Assembly (NCBI GenBank): GCA_024137785.1
Contig: JAHRHZ010000012.1
Span: 42,008,966-42,072,965 of the forward strand
Direction of reading: 5' to 3'
Length of the DNA: 64,000 bases
Source of the DNA: Ginglymostoma cirratum
Taxonomy: Eukaryota
The position numbers and the translations under genes were made by a program. Positions 12,983 through 57,251 of this stretch are shown here, piece by piece; within the stretch, counting starts at the first letter, position 1, and the number at the start of each line of letters is the position of its first letter. The notes beneath the pieces were generated by a model, which saw only the letters and a list, made by a program, of their open reading frames with translations, was not told the origin of the DNA and made no database searches.

Positions 12983-13700
12983 ACAACTGAAATGTGCATT
13001 AATCTTTCAAGCACAGCTTTCGGAATTCCAGGGTTAAGCAGGGAAACAGAAATGATTTTTAAGAGGGTTTGCCAGTGAGTTGGTCTATATGAAAATAAAA
13101 TCAAGCTTATCTTCTATATAGCGATCGCAGGAGGAACAGAAACCTGTGAGAGTCTAAACCCTATGTTGAACATCATCACAAGTGTGCCAGTTATTCAGAA
13201 TTCCACACAGGAACATAATGCGCAGAAGCAGGGCCACACCTTGACTGTAATTAATTACGCTTGTCAGTTTGTGGAACACAGTTTGGTGGAACCAAATGTT
13301 TCAATTGCACTTTGAAAAATAGCTGTCGATGTCATATATTCCTGTGACAAACTTTTAGTTTTTGGATTGTCAGAGACTAAATGTGCAATCCAAGATGTGT
13401 GTTGAGACTGAATATTAGAGTCTGAAACTTTAGACAGTTCTGTGGCTCTTACTCAGATAGTTACTCAGGAAATGAAAGAATGATTAAAATATAGTCTAAT
13501 TCCTGGATAACTACCATAACTAACACATCTATTACACTCACATAGTGCCCCCGACTCACCTTCAACTATCTTTCAAGTCCCCTCCAACTTCACACTATTT
13601 CTTTACCTGACTACTCCACTGCCATTATGTCTTCCAACTATGGTAATCCCTGACCCACCCAGTCAAAACCGGACCGGACCCAACTACACTCACTAGACTT

Positions 13701-13911
13701 ACCCACCCACCAGTCTACAGCCTTTGCAGACCTCATTCACTTACTAGCATCTACGTCTGCCAACCTACCCACCTGCCACTCTGTTCCTTCCCCACTTGTG
13801 TCACCCACTTACCTACTTCCCTCACTCATCATAAACATCCTTCCCAGTCAAAACGGACAAGCAAATTTGAACTGCAAATTCATAGCAGCTAGTGTCTTAG
13901 AAAGGCGGTCT
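13701..13911 (+). repeat. Source copy of a 211-bp local duplication (second copy 14747-14957)
   Basis: Manual alignment shows 14 substitutions and no indels over 211 bp at offset 1046. It explains the paralogous ORFs 13798..14100 and 14844..15068. Confidence 0.95.
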
Positions 13912-14610
13912 CCCCATCCCCAAAACGGCACTGTATTAGAACTCTTCAATGGACACTGTGTGCACATTCTAGGGAACCTGGGCTCAGAAGACCTATCAAG
14001 AAATGCTGAGCAGTGTCCAGACATGGAAATCATTAAGCAGAACAGCAATCTGACAATCTTGGTTCATGGAAGCCACAGGCCACATTTTCCGTCTCCTTAA
14101 AACATCAGTTTTAACTGCTCATGAGCACCTTTGTAAGGCATGCTGGAATATGTTTGTAGAATAATTATAATGTGCTACATGTTTTACAGCATTAGAAGTG
14201 AGGGGACGTTCACATCTTGTCTGAAAAGAAACAACACCTTGACAAATCCTTAAAGATGAGAAATGCAAAATATTTGCAACACAATAGCGATTCTCTCCAT
14301 GACCAAAAAGTGAGAATTCATTTTGTTTTACATTTCCTGGACCAAAACACATTTTTGGTATTACTGAAAAAAGAAATGATTGCAATGTTAGCAATCTTAA
14401 AAATTTAGCTGCGTTTATGTAAGGGCACAGTTGGGTAGTTCAGTCGTGATGTGGAAAAATCACTGCTCTTATGAAAAAATGCAGTTCAAATCATTGCAGA
14501 GCAGTTAGCTGAACATCACTGCTAGGAAACCACTTTATTCATAACTCAACATCAAACTAGTCAATATTGTGAAGTGAAATACTTGAACAACGAATAATGG
14601 ATTTGTTAAA

Positions 14611-15055
14611 GAGATAGTAGGAACTGCAGATGCCTAAGAATCTGAGATAACAAGGTGTAGAGCTGGATGAACACAGCAGGCCAAGCAGCATCAGAGGAGC
14701 AGGAAAGCTGACATTTCGGGTCTATACCCTTCTTCAGAAATCACCCACCCACCCACCAGTCTACATCCTTTGCAGACCTCATTCAATTACTAGCTTCTAC
14801 ATCTGCCAACCTACCCACCTGTCACTCTGTTCCTTCCCCACTTGTGCCACCCACTTACCTACTTCCCTCACCCACCATAAACATCCTACCCAGTCAAAAC
14901 GAACATGCAAATTTGAACAGCAAATTCACAGCAGCTAGTGTCTTAGAAAGGCGGCCTCTTCTTCTGAAGAAGGGTCTAGGCCCAAAATGTCAGCTTTCCT
15001 GCTCCTCTGATGCTGCTTGGCCTGCTGTGTTCGTCCAGCTCTACATCTTGTTATC
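14611..15055 (-). mobile_element. PLE-derived inverted-arm element (family A) enclosing captured local DNA
   Basis: Perfect 14-bp TSD atggatttgttaaa (14597-14610 and 15056-15069). Arms 14646-14740 and 14961-15055 are reverse complements, with an unpaired 35-nt tail at 14611-14645. The interior 14747-14957 is a copy of 13701-13911. Confidence 0.9.
14710..14737 (-). ncRNA. Minimal type-I hammerhead ribozyme-like core
   Basis: Minus strand reads CUGAAGA-A-GGGU-AUAG-ACCC-GAAA-UG-UC: CUGANGA box, 4-bp stem II, GAAA box and GUC triplet. Helix III is essentially absent and no stem-I 5' strand is evident. Activity is untested. Confidence 0.55.
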
Positions 15056-15464
15056 ATGGATTTGTTAAAAGTGGGTGAGGATGACATCATTTTAAGTTTT
15101 TAATGCGTGTTAATTTGGACAGATAAACAAGAGTGATTCATATAATGGGAACTATTTTTGTTTTCAGGTCAGGACAATTTCCAACTTTAAACCTGAAATC
15201 ACATCCCATTAGACACCCAACATAACCTTTGTAACAATGGTTTACTCATACTAAGGGAGTAACATGTGCAACATTTAAGGATGAAACTTTCAATTTTTAA
15301 AAAAGGCCTTAACTGTCAGGTGATCATTATTGAAAAGGACCATTTCCCTCCACTGGGTGCAGTAAGGGGGAGGGCATAGTCTTAAGCAGGATGGAACTCA
15401 ACAAACTTCATGTACCTACTATTCATCACTATTCCAGTACCACCACCTTCACAAATCAAGAATT

Positions 15465-15670
15465 CTCTCCAATGTGTCTCATGAGGCTTGTTAGAAAAAT
15501 TCATATCTCTGGTTTAAGAGCAAATATATTGTCATGGGTACAAAGTTGGCTAACAAATAAGAAGAAAGAAATTGATTAAATAGGTGATACTCAGACGACT
15601 GAAAAAGAATTTGAAATCTGTAATATCCCAAGAGTCAGTGCAAGATTCCCTTATGTTTTCAGTGTATATG
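15465..15670 (+). mobile_element. Old CR1 RT fragment
   Basis: MRLVRKIHISGLRANILSWVQSWLTNKK followed by a decayed PQESV (PQGSV) motif. Confidence 0.7.
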
Positions 15671-16068
15671 TAGATAATTAGGAGGAAATGTATGCAGTGT
15701 TCTCAGGTACATTCTGATTGACTCTTCACTTGGTGAATTAATTGTGTTGTAGTCAATCTTAGAAAGAAAGCTTTGCAGTTGTGCTGGGATACATAAAAAT
15801 AACAAATGCAATACCAGTACTCTTCATTAATATATAACACAATGAAAGCATTAAAAAAATTAGTGCAGAAAATGACAGTCAGACACTTCTTGCAACAGAC
15901 TAGTTAATGTGTTCATGATAACTTAATATCTGCAGTATTTTAACCCATATAGTTAATACAAATGCATGAATTAGTGCAGCAAAAATAAAATTGGAGTCAA
16001 AATAGCCTAGTCCTTCTGATTCAGTCCAATCACAACTTCAATTCCTACTTAACACTAAAAGTTCTCAC

Positions 16069-16211
16069 TTGGCATAGTTTGGGCACAGCTTTAATTTCCT
16101 CTGCAAAAGCCTGGAATAATTAGAGGATGTTTCTTCCTGATGAAGATTCCTTGATCTCAAATTAATTCAGTGCAAGCTTGACCTCTTCTGTGCTCATTGA
16201 GGCAAATGGAT
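16069..16211 (-). other. Candidate non-coding exon (143 nt)
   Basis: Acceptor tttcctttctttttctgttgcag|ATCC and donor CCAA|gtgaga on the minus strand. All three frames contain stops. Confidence 0.25.
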
Positions 16212-17999
16212 CTGCAACAGAAAAAGAAAGGAAATCTGTCTTTGCTACATTAGGTTGTATCTTCTGAAATCCAGGGCAGTTTGACTTAAATCTATGATGT
16301 GCATCAAGATCCTATACTACAATTGCCTAGGAAGCTTAAATTTCAGTGGGCTGAATCACATTGCCTATATGAAAAAGTTTCTAACTCTCAAAAACTTGGA
16401 CCCAGAAACAACTTGTAATGGGAGGGAAAGGGGCAGGTTGTGACTCACATGAGGGAAACCCAAAGTTAGATAGTCTATTTGAATTCTGTGCTGAATTCAA
16501 ACATGCTCATTTTTAATTGTAGTCAGAGTCTAACTTGAGGAGTGCAAGCTACAGATTTTTAGAATAAATGTTAAATATTCCTGATGCATGGGTGAAAACA
16601 AATTGTGAAGTTAGTTGAATCCCAAGTACTTTTAGAAATTAAAAAATAGATTTCCTATAATAGTGTGAAATGAGAAAAATTCTGTTCAAGCAGTTACAAC
16701 AGCAATGTGTTGACATTCCTCCAAGGGCTTTTATTATTATTTTATATTTAATGCTTGGCTTCCTTCCAAAACCTATCATTACCTTAGCAGAGGACACCCA
16801 AGTTCATAGTTTGGTTGACAAATCATTGAGGTTGTTAATGGATTAGCTCGCTTTGTGATATCATGAAGACAAGTTTGTTTGCTTTTGTAAGTGATTAATT
16901 ACCTGATAGGATTTAAAGACTTTGAATTGGTTTTCATGAATGGGTGTTTTCTTTCTAATTTAGTAAAGGTTATAACAGACATTTAGAATTTTATTTTACC
17001 TAAACCTGCGTCTTGAAATCTGCCCCACTGACCCCATTGGGTGAGCTGGCATGGAGCATGTAGGAACAAAAGAAATATAAGGGGCCATGAAAGCATGCAG
17101 GTACTTTAAATTGTCCTGGAGACCATGAGGATACATTTGGGTGGGTGAGGGGCATGGACTGGTATTGCATCTTATATAGCACATGGGGAGAGATGAAGGG
17201 TGCAGGTTAGAGGAACTAATAATTAGCAAAAAGCTGAAATTCCAGAGAGCCATGGTGGGCTATTAATCAACCCACTTTGGTACACAGGCTACCCCTTTGA
17301 TCTGTATCCCAGGATGGCAGGTCTGACTCCATTCAGCACCTTTTCCATGTTGCCCCAGAGTAAAGAGCCTGCCATTCAGGTGATTTACTCCTGATACTGG
17401 TGCAGTAAGTTGAAAAATTTCCCAAATCCTACCCAGCTCAGGAGTGAAAGCAAGACTGTTGGGCTAGATACATGAGACTCTGCCAAGTACATACCCAGCA
17501 AGTCTTATTTTGGTTAATACCTGTATGCCTCTGATATTCACTGGTACGATTGAAACAAACACCACAACCAACGCTGCAATCACTTCCCTGAATCTGGGTA
17601 AACTGTCTTTCATACAACCTCACTCTAACTGAATAGCAACTGTGACCCAATTACACCTGAAACCTGACTTGACTAAACTCTGATGTGAGTCTACCCTGAC
17701 CCTTGCTAACTTTCTAACCTCACCACTGACTCCCTCCACATATCACTAATCCATTCATTCATGTACTTGATCATCCACTCATTTACTCACTGAAAGACTT
17801 AAGGCCTTTAATTGGCAATAAAGGAAACATGTCCACTCTTTGCTCATCTTCTTCAGTATTTACCCAAGTTCACTTTGAAAGGTTCTGCTAATCCAGCTCT
17901 GTTGCATCAGTATCTGCAATCCCAGCTGAGAAGCACAAAAAAGGTTAGGGTGCAGAAATCTAGCTCTCTTTGGCTAAAATAGTACGTCACAGATGCAGG

Positions 18000-18094
18000 A
18001 TAACAAGGTGTGGAGCTGGATGAACACAACAGGCCAAGCAGCATCATAGGAGCAGGAAAGCTTGACGTGTCGGGCCTCGACCCTTCATCAGAAA
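18000..18094 (-). mobile_element. PLE-derived short element (family A), single arm
   Basis: Minus strand tttCTGATGAagggtcgaggcccGACAcGTCaagctttcctgctcc...ccttgttat, homologous to the arms of 14611-15055. The GAAA box is mutated to GACA. Confidence 0.85.
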
Positions 18095-19919
18095 ATGCAG
18101 GGTCTGAATTAATGTCAGGTGGAATTGCCAGCGGAGTGGGCATAGATTAAAGTCAAGAAAGCTGTCCAGAACCCAAAGAACATTTTCTGTGGTATTTTGT
18201 CCCATTTTTAAAGGAGTCTGATAAAAACACTTCTCTGGGGAAAGCCAGACACACGAACTCTCCACCTCCTGAATGGAAGCAGTATTTGAATTTCCAACTG
18301 CATGAGTCTGGCAAATACCCAAGATATGCCACTGTGGCATACACCACAGTCCATACACCAGTCTAATGCCCTTCCATTATTTCCACCTGTTACGTTAGTG
18401 TCAGAGACATGACCCCTGGCTAACTGCAGGGATTTTATGCTTTTTGGGTATTTTGTCCATTTTCTGATTCCACATTTACAATGTCTATTCATTTCATTTT
18501 ACAACGTAATGGTTGTGATTACAATTGTGTACATTGTTCTAAATGTGGTCTCATTATAAACATATTAACAAGTAGAAGAATAGCTGGTTATTAAATCCTC
18601 TTCAACTCTTGGGGCTATATGTTCAAAGTCACACCTCAGCTTTGTCACTTTCTAATACAGCTTTTGACTATAAATGCCTCAATTGTGCAGGAGCCAAGAT
18701 CAGTGCCGAGTTGTTGTGCCAAGCACCTCCAACAGGTGAGAGCTACCTGGTTGGGGCCAGTAACAAATGTAGATGGCAGCTATGTTGAGGCCTGCTACTG
18801 CCTTTCAAAGAAAAGCAGGCACCTCCTAAGATGGTCAGGAGGATAAATGCTTCAGAATAAGGGTGAACAGGGTTTTCCCCATAATGGGAAAACAAAACTA
18901 GAAACTGTTGTCACCAACAGATGCTAGAAGCTTCCTATTCACCTGGAAAACATAGCTACCTTGTATTTAGCCTATTCCCACATTTGAATGATTTAAATGC
19001 ATGTTGCTAAATCTGTAAAACAGAAATAATCTATCAATAGAAGTGGAATCCACCTCTTTAATTATTTTGCATATTACTATGGAGTATCAATATCACTTAA
19101 TTTCACTGTTGTATACCTCAGCATATTTTGTGAATTACTCTTTCACAATTTGACACATTTTAGTATTTGGTCTTGTAGGCATTTCTTCCACTCAGTCTTC
19201 TTTAATGATGCATTTGTGAAGTGTAATCACTTTTCCTATTTTTAGCACCAAAAGAAATGTGCTACAACACATGTTTGTATGCGCAAACTTCACCGTAGAA
19301 TACAAAACTTACAATTAGGAAGACAAATGACGCTATACCTAACAGTTCAAACATTTGAAATGGTTTATGCATTTAGCTCCATCTGGTTTGTAATGTGATT
19401 TCCTGTAGTGGAACTTTTTCTACAAGCGAGACATATTTTAATAATTGTCTTCATAAGCATAATGTATCATTGAATGTCTCTAGAGATTTGCCACAAGGGT
19501 TTGGTAAACCCAAAACAAAACACAATCAGTTTAGTCAAAGTATACTTCCTGAAAAAAAAGCCTTTGCAGCTTTCACTGAATCAAGTAACCACTTACTTTT
19601 AATCATATATTTGTAAAATTATGTCACACTAATTAAGCTACTTTAATGATTGATAATTTAAGTCGCCTTAAATGAACCACCGGTTTCTTCTGAAAACAAT
19701 ATTATCTGACATTTTGTAAGCTTAGAACATTATAAATACAGTTTGGCCATATTTTATGGATGATAATATTGGTTTTCTGACACTTTTATAATGGAAATTA
19801 AATCAACATAAATTTGAACTAATATCCTACCATATTTTACTAGTTACTTGCTTGTGATACAACAGCAAATCATGCACTGGACTGATGCTTTTCTTCTATG
19901 TAGAACAGGCTTAGATCAT

Positions 19920-38670: not shown

Positions 38671-38797
38671 AATTTTTCTGGGTCTAGACCCGAAACGTAG
38701 CTTTCCTGCTCCTCTTATGCTGCTTGGTCAGCTGTGTTCATCCAGCTCTACACCTTGTTATCTCAGATTCTCCAGCATCGGTAGCTCCTACCATCTT
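38671..38797 (+). mobile_element. PLE-derived short element (family A), single arm with tail
   Basis: 10-bp TSD tgtccttgac (38661-38670 and 38798-38807). Core tttctg[deleted]ggtctagacccGAAACGT, followed by the family A body and the tail ctcagattctccagcatc. Confidence 0.88.
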
Positions 38798-56018: not shown

Positions 56019-57068
56019 TTATCTTCTTCATCTATAAAGGATGGAACTTATGGCTTTTAGCTGCAATTCTTAGTGCTCAATCACTTTGTGGTTATTTGAA
56101 GGCTGCCTTTATGGATTGCATTGCATTTTAGCCAGACAGCAGCAAGAGTTTGTAGTAATGGAAGATGAGGTGGTGAGAGCCGCTGAGTGGAGATACTGTG
56201 TACAATAGCGAGATTGGTAGTCCATTAGTGTTGGTGAGTTCATATGAAGTGGCAGAACTGGAGGCACTTAAGTCTTGATGAGTGCAGAACATCATTGTCC
56301 TTTCTCCTGGGCTGCAGTGCACTCTTACTGACCCTGGAGACAGCACTGACCTAGGACGTTTCCTATGTCCAGATCAGCTGGCAAGATTCAATATCTTGAC
56401 CTCCTCTGATGATCCACCAGATACAGGATGGCCCTCCTTTCAACTATCCCATCCACTAGGACCTCGAGATCTCATCTAGAAATTGGAGGGCCATCCTCCT
56501 TTTCTGAGACATTTAGGTTTCTACAGAAGGCAGTGTGCAAGGTAGTTGCTGGCTTGCAGCATCTGAAGTTGTCTATAGCTGCCTTTAAAAATGGTGACAG
56601 CAACAAAATTTTGCCTCTCCTGCATGAGAAGGATGCGAAAGTAGCTAGTTATATAATTAATGAGATGAGGAGTGGAAGCTCAGGAGAGAAATCCCACTGT
56701 GAGCCATGACAGGATATCTTCCATGAAACTCCCTGAAAATAACATAACACTAATAAATGGGAAGCTCCAGTCCAATGTAACAGATGACAGTTCATTGTTT
56801 CACCTCTTACTAATCCGCTGACAGGTGTTCTACATACACCAGTGTAAGGGATTATCTATGATTAATATCTATGATTATTTTCTATAGATTTTTTTACATT
56901 CACACTCATAATGAAATCTGCCTGCTTAAATTTGGTCTGTTGTGATTGTACCTTTCTACTGGTGGCATCTTGCAAATTATAGCAGCATGACAGAGCAGAT
57001 TTTTGGACAACAATGTCCAGATTGGGACAGTAAGGAACAGGATGTATAAACATTTAGAAAAGCAGTAA

Positions 57069-57251
57069 TATCACAGTGTGGAGATGGAAGAACACAGCAG
57101 GCCAGGCAGCATCAGAGGAGCAGGAAAGTTGACGTTTCAGGTCGGGACCCTTCTTCTCCTGCTTCCCTGATGTTCCTTGGACTGCTGTGTTCTTCCAGCT
57201 CCATACCGTGTTATCTCTGACTCCAGCATCTGCAGTTCTTGCTATCCCCAT
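57069..57251 (+). mobile_element. PLE-derived inverted-arm element (family A-like)
   Basis: 11-bp TSD aaaagcagtaa (57058-57068 and 57252-57262). The left arm is antisense and carries gaagaagggtcccgacctGAAACGTC; the right arm is sense with an unpaired ~36-nt tail at 57216-57251. Confidence 0.88.

Follow-up and report, generated by a model that had tools for sequence, protein, structure and literature searches.

The window, that is, the whole 64-kb stretch of DNA that was analysed, contains an insert with inverted arms at 14597-15069. The 14-bp sequence ATGGATTTGTTAAA stands at both borders as an exact TSD that cannot be extended further, and the insert between the two TSD copies (14611-15055) is 445 bp long. 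It consists, in order, of a 35-nt tail, a 96-nt antisense arm, a 5-nt filler, a 212-bp copy of upstream DNA, a 3-nt filler and a 94-nt sense arm (Table 1). The left and right arms differ at 5 of 94 sites. A preliminary description of this locus had the perfect TSD, the insert length and the 35-nt tail right. Its 211-bp copy and 95-nt arms were off by 1-2 nucleotides.

Table 1. Features of the insert and its source (positions of the window)
Feature	Position	Strand	Remarks
Source DNA	13701..13912	+	C-rich single-copy host DNA; end 684 bp ahead of TSD
TSD, left copy	14597..14610	+	14 bp
Tail, 35 nt	14611..14645	-	Transcript positions 97-131; at left end only
Left arm, 96 nt	14646..14741	-	Transcript positions 1-96; reaches inferred start A(+1)
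Hammerhead-like minimal core, left arm	14710..14737	-	CUGAAGA, 4-bp stem II, GAAA, GUC
Junction filler, 5 nt	14742..14746	+	C plus one additional ACCC unit of the source's opening repeat
Captured copy, 212 bp	14747..14958	+	Direct copy of 13701-13912; 14 differences
Junction filler, 3 nt	14959..14961	+	Repeats arm end
Right arm, 94 nt	14962..15055	+	Transcript positions 3-96; without tail
Hammerhead-like core, right arm	14964-14991	+	Broken at 14984, GAAA to AAAA
TSD, right copy	15056..15069	+	14 bp

Three further members of the arm family were seen by eye in the window. At 57068-57246 a head-to-head pair is fused with no filler between the arms and has an apparent 11-bp TSD. A solo arm lies at 17999-18094, and a solo arm with tail and apparent TSD lies at 38680-38796. 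The inverted pair at 12846-12984 (59 nt, 78% complementary, 21-nt gap) is unrelated and probably represents another small repeat family.

The captured DNA had been described as a copy, in the same orientation, of sequence 1046 bp upstream. Alignment of the two was gapless and direct, with a start-to-start distance of 1046 bp and 14 differences in 212 positions. A search of the organism's own genome (4.36 Gb) returned source and copy as the sole two matches, a count that is a lower bound as the search passes over very common words. This result speaks against a repeat nested by chance, the alternative raised in the preliminary description.

Contigs of a close relative, organism A, cross the flank-tail junction in runs X1, X6 and X5, which come from three studies. 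In runs X1 and X6 contigs also cross the arm-copy junction and the junction of the right arm with the flank; this junction support comes in separate pieces, none of which covers the entire unit. As these assemblies were made independently and contain the junctions, an artefact of assembly is ruled out for the unit. The source of organism A has the letters of our copy at 13860, 13873 and 13883, its copy has the letter of our source at 14786, and its copy and source agree at 13749/14795. Polarised by relatives, 5 of the 14 differences are later mutations, as would be expected if copy and source started identical. In organism B the contig ends at 14591 and in organism C the flank has no coverage, so that no empty site was recovered from an outgroup. 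Further to the right, a 151-nt contig of organism C (run X14) matches 15175-15325 with 0 differences, the adjacent flank being uncovered; this is possibly a conserved or transcribed stretch.

The arm and tail open an autonomous unit. At sister loci L184, L186 and L187 they pass straight into an ORF, starting at base 1 of the arm in L184 and L186, and all three have the pLTR feature, an identical sequence that opens and closes the unit as partial tandems. Locus L168 shows an RT-GIY-YIG frame followed by a body segment, arm and tail. The frame of L098 matched RVT_1 with an E-value of 4e-6 (27 bits, below the cut-off of 29.6) and GIY-YIG with an E-value of 2.6e-5, above the cut-off. A C-x4-C-x2-C motif lies in its RT-EN linker; judged by this motif only, the element would resemble the Neptune clade, of which a Zn-finger-like Cys motif in the linker is characteristic. 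Like an EN+ Penelope-like insertion, the window locus has an inverted 5'-truncated copy, a tail at one end and a TSD, which bears out the Penelope-type anatomy recognised earlier.

Of the 8 body-linked loci checked, 7 have a TATTTA that starts at -31; in the eighth it starts at -37. Together with CCATTTC around +1, this forms what we take to be TATA and initiator motifs. When 60 arm copies in flanks, outside the pattern selection described below, were inspected, 30 stopped a few bases from +1 and 30 continued into the body. We infer that the unit starts where a promoter defines the 5' end of the RNA. It is likely that the arms are complete cDNAs that run from two internal start sites (+96 and +131) up to this end, because TATTTA keeps its position and half of the flank copies stop near +1. 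Short arms in many loci have at least one extra A (cDNA sense) ahead of the terminal T, which is absent from the body-linked copies listed and which we read as slippage by the RT or at transcription start. A C beyond the arm end (24 of 39 A-T ends) was considered as a copy of the cap. This idea was dropped because the search filter excludes G there and re-copying of the arm end also yields C.

The preliminary description placed a hammerhead-like core in each arm, which holds at the level of the motif. In the left core the letters of CUGANGA, stem II, GAAA and the UH site are intact and stem I is unconvincing; the right core carries G12>A. Six arm starts were folded. Stem II formed in 4 of the 6 shown, and none of the six folds was better than shuffled sequences (z-scores of 0.02-0.96). 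An Rfam scan of 13000-19000 gave no hammerhead match at E<=5, the sole match being a chance snoRNA; minimal hammerhead motifs are expected to score poorly in Rfam. The hammerheads are thus present here as motifs and putative as ribozymes.

We ruled out three kinds of mobile element for this unit. A non-LTR retrozyme would have tandem, same-strand arms, and the arms here are inverted with one core broken. A self-propagating ribozyme element does not fit cores on opposite strands, one of them broken. A self-propagating non-autonomous element with cargo does not fit a window filler that is present at source and copy only; among the 121 loci analysed below, a single pair (L144 and L146) shares a filler between two contigs. 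In place of the mini-element family of the preliminary description, the unit is a side product of insertion that is made afresh on every occasion, always out of the opening part of the autonomous transcript.

We searched the genome with exact patterns for inward-facing arm ends that required 26 unmutated bases. The unfiltered pattern gave 216 loci at gaps of 200-230, most of which continue into the element body. With a filter against body continuation, 212 loci were obtained at gaps of 31-86, 78 at 86-146, 70 at 176-236 and 49 at 237-297, so that the filtered search covered spacers of 31-146 and 176-297 bp. Reversed-pattern controls gave 0 loci. The patterns select arms intact to +3, and events with eroded inner ends escape. 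Because the patterns demand 26 unmutated bases and omit several length ranges, the true count of such units is likely several hundred.

Stretches of 10 kb were analysed around 121 loci, drawn from the first 50 matches listed per gap class. In the class of 176-236, 46 of the 50 listed loci were used, including the window locus, and 4 with N were omitted. In the class of 237-297, 35 of 49 were used, 3 more fell in other classes, and 11 were omitted as short or as element-filled by their first letters. The class of 86-146 gave 39 of 50 listed loci, 11 being omitted on the same grounds, and the unfiltered set at gaps of 200-230 added one locus. Element sequence or N was found in 47 of the 121 fillers, and 74 were free of both.

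A local source, defined as covering at least half of the filler at >=82% within the same 10-kb stretch (radius ~4.7 kb), was found for 51 of the 74 element-free fillers and for 2 of 328 random element-free flank windows. This is the genome-wide comparison of spacers with flanks outlined in the preliminary description, and it agrees with the template switch onto neighbouring DNA or a local transcript suggested there. A TSD encloses 42 of the 51 local copies (33 by strict and 9 by relaxed matching; chance, 0 of 150). The TSDs of sister loci are 13-16 bp long in 52 of 61 cases, and their AT fraction is 0.64. Of the remaining 23 fillers, 13 have no TSD, mostly have divergent arms (71-93% alike) and are likely independent insertions. 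The 10 with a TSD comprise 4 partial or two-piece local copies, 1 pure fold-back, 2 with sources on other contigs and 3 (L069, L152 and L157) that could not be placed within their own 10-kb stretch.

Junctions were tabulated in 51 rows, with L102 left out and L052, which has a piece of local element as filler, taken in. The source lies to the left in 26 rows and to the right in 25, and is inverted in 30 and direct in 21. Its distance to the unit has a median of 629 bp, a 10-90% range of 130-1611 bp and a maximum of 4279 bp within the search radius of ~4.7 kb. In 46 of the 51 rows the tail is at one end only. Among the matches listed, short fillers are mainly of fold-back origin or repeat the end of an arm. 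Of 20 fillers picked by hand from the 50 listed in the short class, 11 (1 of them ambiguous) have a local source, 114-1863 bp from the arm junction.

Copy-source divergence correlates with arm-arm divergence (rho 0.46, p 9e-4, n=50), and in young loci arms and copies are both 98-100% identical. This correlation and the single TSD support the earlier proposal that duplication and insertion were one event, which we regard as highly probable.

The fillers at the joint include fold-backs, arm repeats, element pieces, local DNA, distant DNA, spliced mRNA and telomeric repeats. The filler of L051 (G000:C52:24263699) lies inside a TSD and consists of three exons with GT-AG at both joins; its source is on another contig (G000:C87:12558288-12563490), with introns of ~3.2 and 1.85 kb. 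It is a fragment of spliced host mRNA, a tiny retrocopy made at the joint from an RNA template, and this one case means that jumps of the RT onto host RNA do occur. In L143 (G000:C9:21635063) and L219 (G000:C13:13315504) the fillers are snap-backs: each begins in the tail of its own unit, crosses the TSD and continues into the flank. Because such a strand arises only upon insertion, these two fillers were copied from a DNA template on the new strand.

At locus L233 (G000:C4:6798337-6798406), a cDNA 3' end bears four telomeric repeats, the sole such tract in 10 kb. The repeats start with the AT of the template of the genome's own telomerase RNA (RF00024 match at G000:C17:53039016-53039599) and end at the template boundary. 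In this one case the repeats were likely added by telomerase; cDNA ends are therefore accessible to host enzymes. Penelope-like elements are the sister group of telomerase.

Both fillers taken to a genome-wide search, those of L122 (96% identity) and L051, map to other contigs, and no arm lies within ~0.8 kb of these distant sources. The local origin claimed earlier is thus recurrent and is not universal. In L146 and L168 two-piece local fillers unite one piece from the left with one from the right, both on the same strand and in the order that they have in the genome. A splice reading was rejected here, as the joins are not exact GT-AG. With such collinear pieces a simple model of a resected overhang fails; a through-running RNA or the sister chromatid could give them.

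Loci L144 (G000:C9:28422154; left end unreadable) and L146 (G000:C12:60608140) carry an identical 88-bp filler on different contigs. Because both filler sources flank L146 only, this captured unit was copied onward, either by a jump of the RT onto the unit's transcript or by gap repair from the unit. At L225 (G000:C18:4511733 and 4512286), identical arm-filler-arm cores lie 553 bp apart, and the filler source is 1.9 kb off.

The junction with the longer filler was on the target-nearer end of the source in 30 loci and on the other end in 10 of 48 (p 0.004; 3 multi-piece loci dropped). The polarity would then be set by the break, and we count it in favour of bridging by flanking DNA. Loci of known direction disagree on what the longer filler stands for, the beginning of synthesis or its end: it is at the priming end in L051 and at the finishing end in L219. 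No excess of arm-source microhomology was seen at either junction (6 and 8 of 51), which counts against such bridging, and microhomology was rejected as a mark of the primed junction since the junctions do not differ. Counting fold-back or repeat fillers at each junction gave 16 versus 10 of 51 and was uninformative.

A mechanism can be proposed from these data. Both strands of a staggered cut likely primed reverse transcription of the element RNA. Judging from the literature and the anatomy, the enzyme would cut both strands and extend them from a pair of internal start sites that lie 35 nt apart, and the outcome would be a tail at one end and a 13-16-bp TSD. Both cDNAs would run off the RNA 5' end. 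Because two cDNA ends of the same sequence cannot anneal to each other, the joint needs end-joining. For the local class, the template may be flanking DNA within ~2 kb, either an opened or resected flank or the sister chromatid. From it 40-280 nt would be copied by a host repair polymerase or by the element's own enzyme, followed by release and joining. We give slightly better than even weight to flanking DNA as the bridge between the two free cDNA ends in the local class, including the window locus. This weight, like that of the transcript reading below, concerns the class as a whole; the window locus itself shows neither template directly.

The strongest competing explanation also starts from a twin-primed event and has the element RT jump from its own RNA 5' end onto a nascent transcript of the host that is tethered close to the target. 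We hold it to be a real possibility, though clearly the less probable. The GT-AG-joined exons of L051, drawn from another contig, speak for such jumps, as do the many fillers made of internal element pieces (47 of 121 with element sequence or N) and the collinear copies of L146 and L168, which span the target. Proteins of R2 are also described to switch templates (PMC11371274). On the other hand, L143 and L219 require a DNA template, and exact intron skipping was not seen in local fillers (two-piece cases inspected). Furthermore, most sources are no more than 1.6 kb away, a reach far below the length of introns. In a weak test, Pfam found no host gene in 27 of the 45 longest frames of the window, with 1 weak match below cut-off.

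Alternatively, the arms could have been inserted first as a near-perfect palindrome, with a later break at the apex patched by templated local DNA. Head-to-head units with no filler do exist (57068-57246), and the divergence correlation is merely moderate. However, the arms mostly reach +1, with extra A's and re-copied arm ends exactly at the RNA 5' boundary, arms and copies of young loci are equally fresh, and an mRNA filler requires RT at the joint. We consider this order of events improbable.

Even less credit is due to a pre-formed arm-host-arm RNA, made by read-through or by antisense self-priming as proposed for rotifer elements, that is mobilised as cargo. PMC3846280 reports unrelated sequence between TSD-flanked solo pLTRs together with mobilisation in trans, and the shared 88-bp filler of L144 and L146 would suit such a cargo. 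But the window source has no adjacent arm, so that this reading is largely refuted there, and the distant sources of L122 and L051 also have none nearby. Cargo from a single donor should recur, yet the fillers are locus-specific, and 51 landings within 2 kb of the source would be unexpected. Chance, in the form of two independent insertions, a nested repeat or an assembly artefact, is hardly credible: the 13 of 74 element-free fillers that have neither TSD nor local source resemble independent insertions, but at the window locus chance is refuted by the single TSD around the whole unit, the uniqueness of the copy and the junctions in the relative's assemblies.

The fillers have wider consequences. 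The accessible parts of PMC8557442 and PMC11167929 describe the finishing of PLE insertion and the origin of inverted ends as open. The fillers offer an answer that can be tested at genome scale, in which cDNAs from both cut strands are joined centrally and no antisense self-priming is involved. They also show a recurrent way in which a large vertebrate genome gains local duplications of 40-280 bp, pieces of mRNA and interstitial telomeric repeats; L233 is one case of a route to interstitial telomeric sequence. As a warning, PLE-class enzymes used for RNA-templated gene writing would be expected to produce inverted ends and to capture sequence of the host.

A doubtful extension is that Penelope-type integration always closes at a central joint of two free cDNA 3' ends, which would make the joint a natural recorder in this lineage. 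If so, hundreds of germline insertions would have sampled the flank within ~2 kb, the sister chromatid, spliced mRNA and telomerase, the fillers would serve as a germline map of resection and of the chromatin close to breaks, and onward copying would have carried some of the captured units to other chromosomes.

In our literature search, with subscription papers largely outside it, no account turned up of PLE insertions that often capture local DNA from kilobase distances at their central joint. The inverted pLTR, the tail and the templated insertions of L1 are already known; the frequency, reach and template mix seen here were not found in print. The sources compared below are cited from their accessible parts.

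EN+ Penelope-like elements have an inverted pLTR, a 30-40-bp tail at one end, a TSD and TATA/Inr-like motifs in the pLTR (PMC8557442, PMC3846280). According to PMC3846280, solo pLTRs with TSDs have in a few cases captured unrelated non-coding sequence between them; its source is untraced there and mobilisation in trans is the explanation given. Here, we mapped the source, which is usually local. Head-to-head junctions are ascribed to antisense self-priming in PMC3846280, whereas here the joint acts like a repair site with two ends. The two start sites read from the arms fit the Poseidon element PAc of Anolis, which cuts and extends both strands in vitro and whose tail is the interval of two internal RT start sites (PMC11167929). 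The AT-rich TSDs in our survey resemble its AT-rich targets. In the accessible text of PMC11167929, neither the joining of the two cDNAs nor host capture is described, in contrast to the fillers found here at the joint. The Cys-rich RT-EN linker of the present family is a further difference from PAc.

In Schistosoma, dual hammerhead motifs lie on opposite strands, 100-700 bp apart (PMC4209133); section 5 of that paper is silent on the DNA between them. The motif of the arms is, like the minimal hammerheads of PLEs (PMC4209133) and those of retrozymes (10.64898/2026.07.22.740005), of the minimal type I and from the pLTR. Retrozymes carry tandem ribozymes on the same strand (10.64898/2026.07.22.740005), whereas the cores here face opposite ways and one is broken.

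Junctions with 'snap-back' and 'extra template' are known from R2, whose cDNA 3' ends prime on themselves, on nearby DNA or on other RNA (PMC11371274), and the extra nucleotides of zebrafish LINEs are templated local insertions (PMC4760211). Unlike the joint described here, these cases join one cDNA end to the flank, have a short reach and come from engineered or cell-culture systems (PMC11371274, PMC4760211). A parallel is also seen in L1, which shows twin priming, switching at the inversion joint and chimeric inserts that duplicate nearby DNA (bioRxiv 2024.08.27.596794; 2024.12.14.628481), as well as local inverted duplications (bioRxiv 2024.12.14.628481). Templated insertions of L1 were 22 of ~3,600, shorter than 250 bp and no farther than 15 bp from the insertion site (bioRxiv 2024.08.27.596794). 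Compared with L1, the sources here lie much farther off and on both sides, and the patch stands between two cDNA ends and not at a 5' flank junction. As in the L1 type of templated insertion at a twin-primed joint, a template that is not the element was copied inside the TSD, and this is what the TSD-enclosed majority of the local copies shows.
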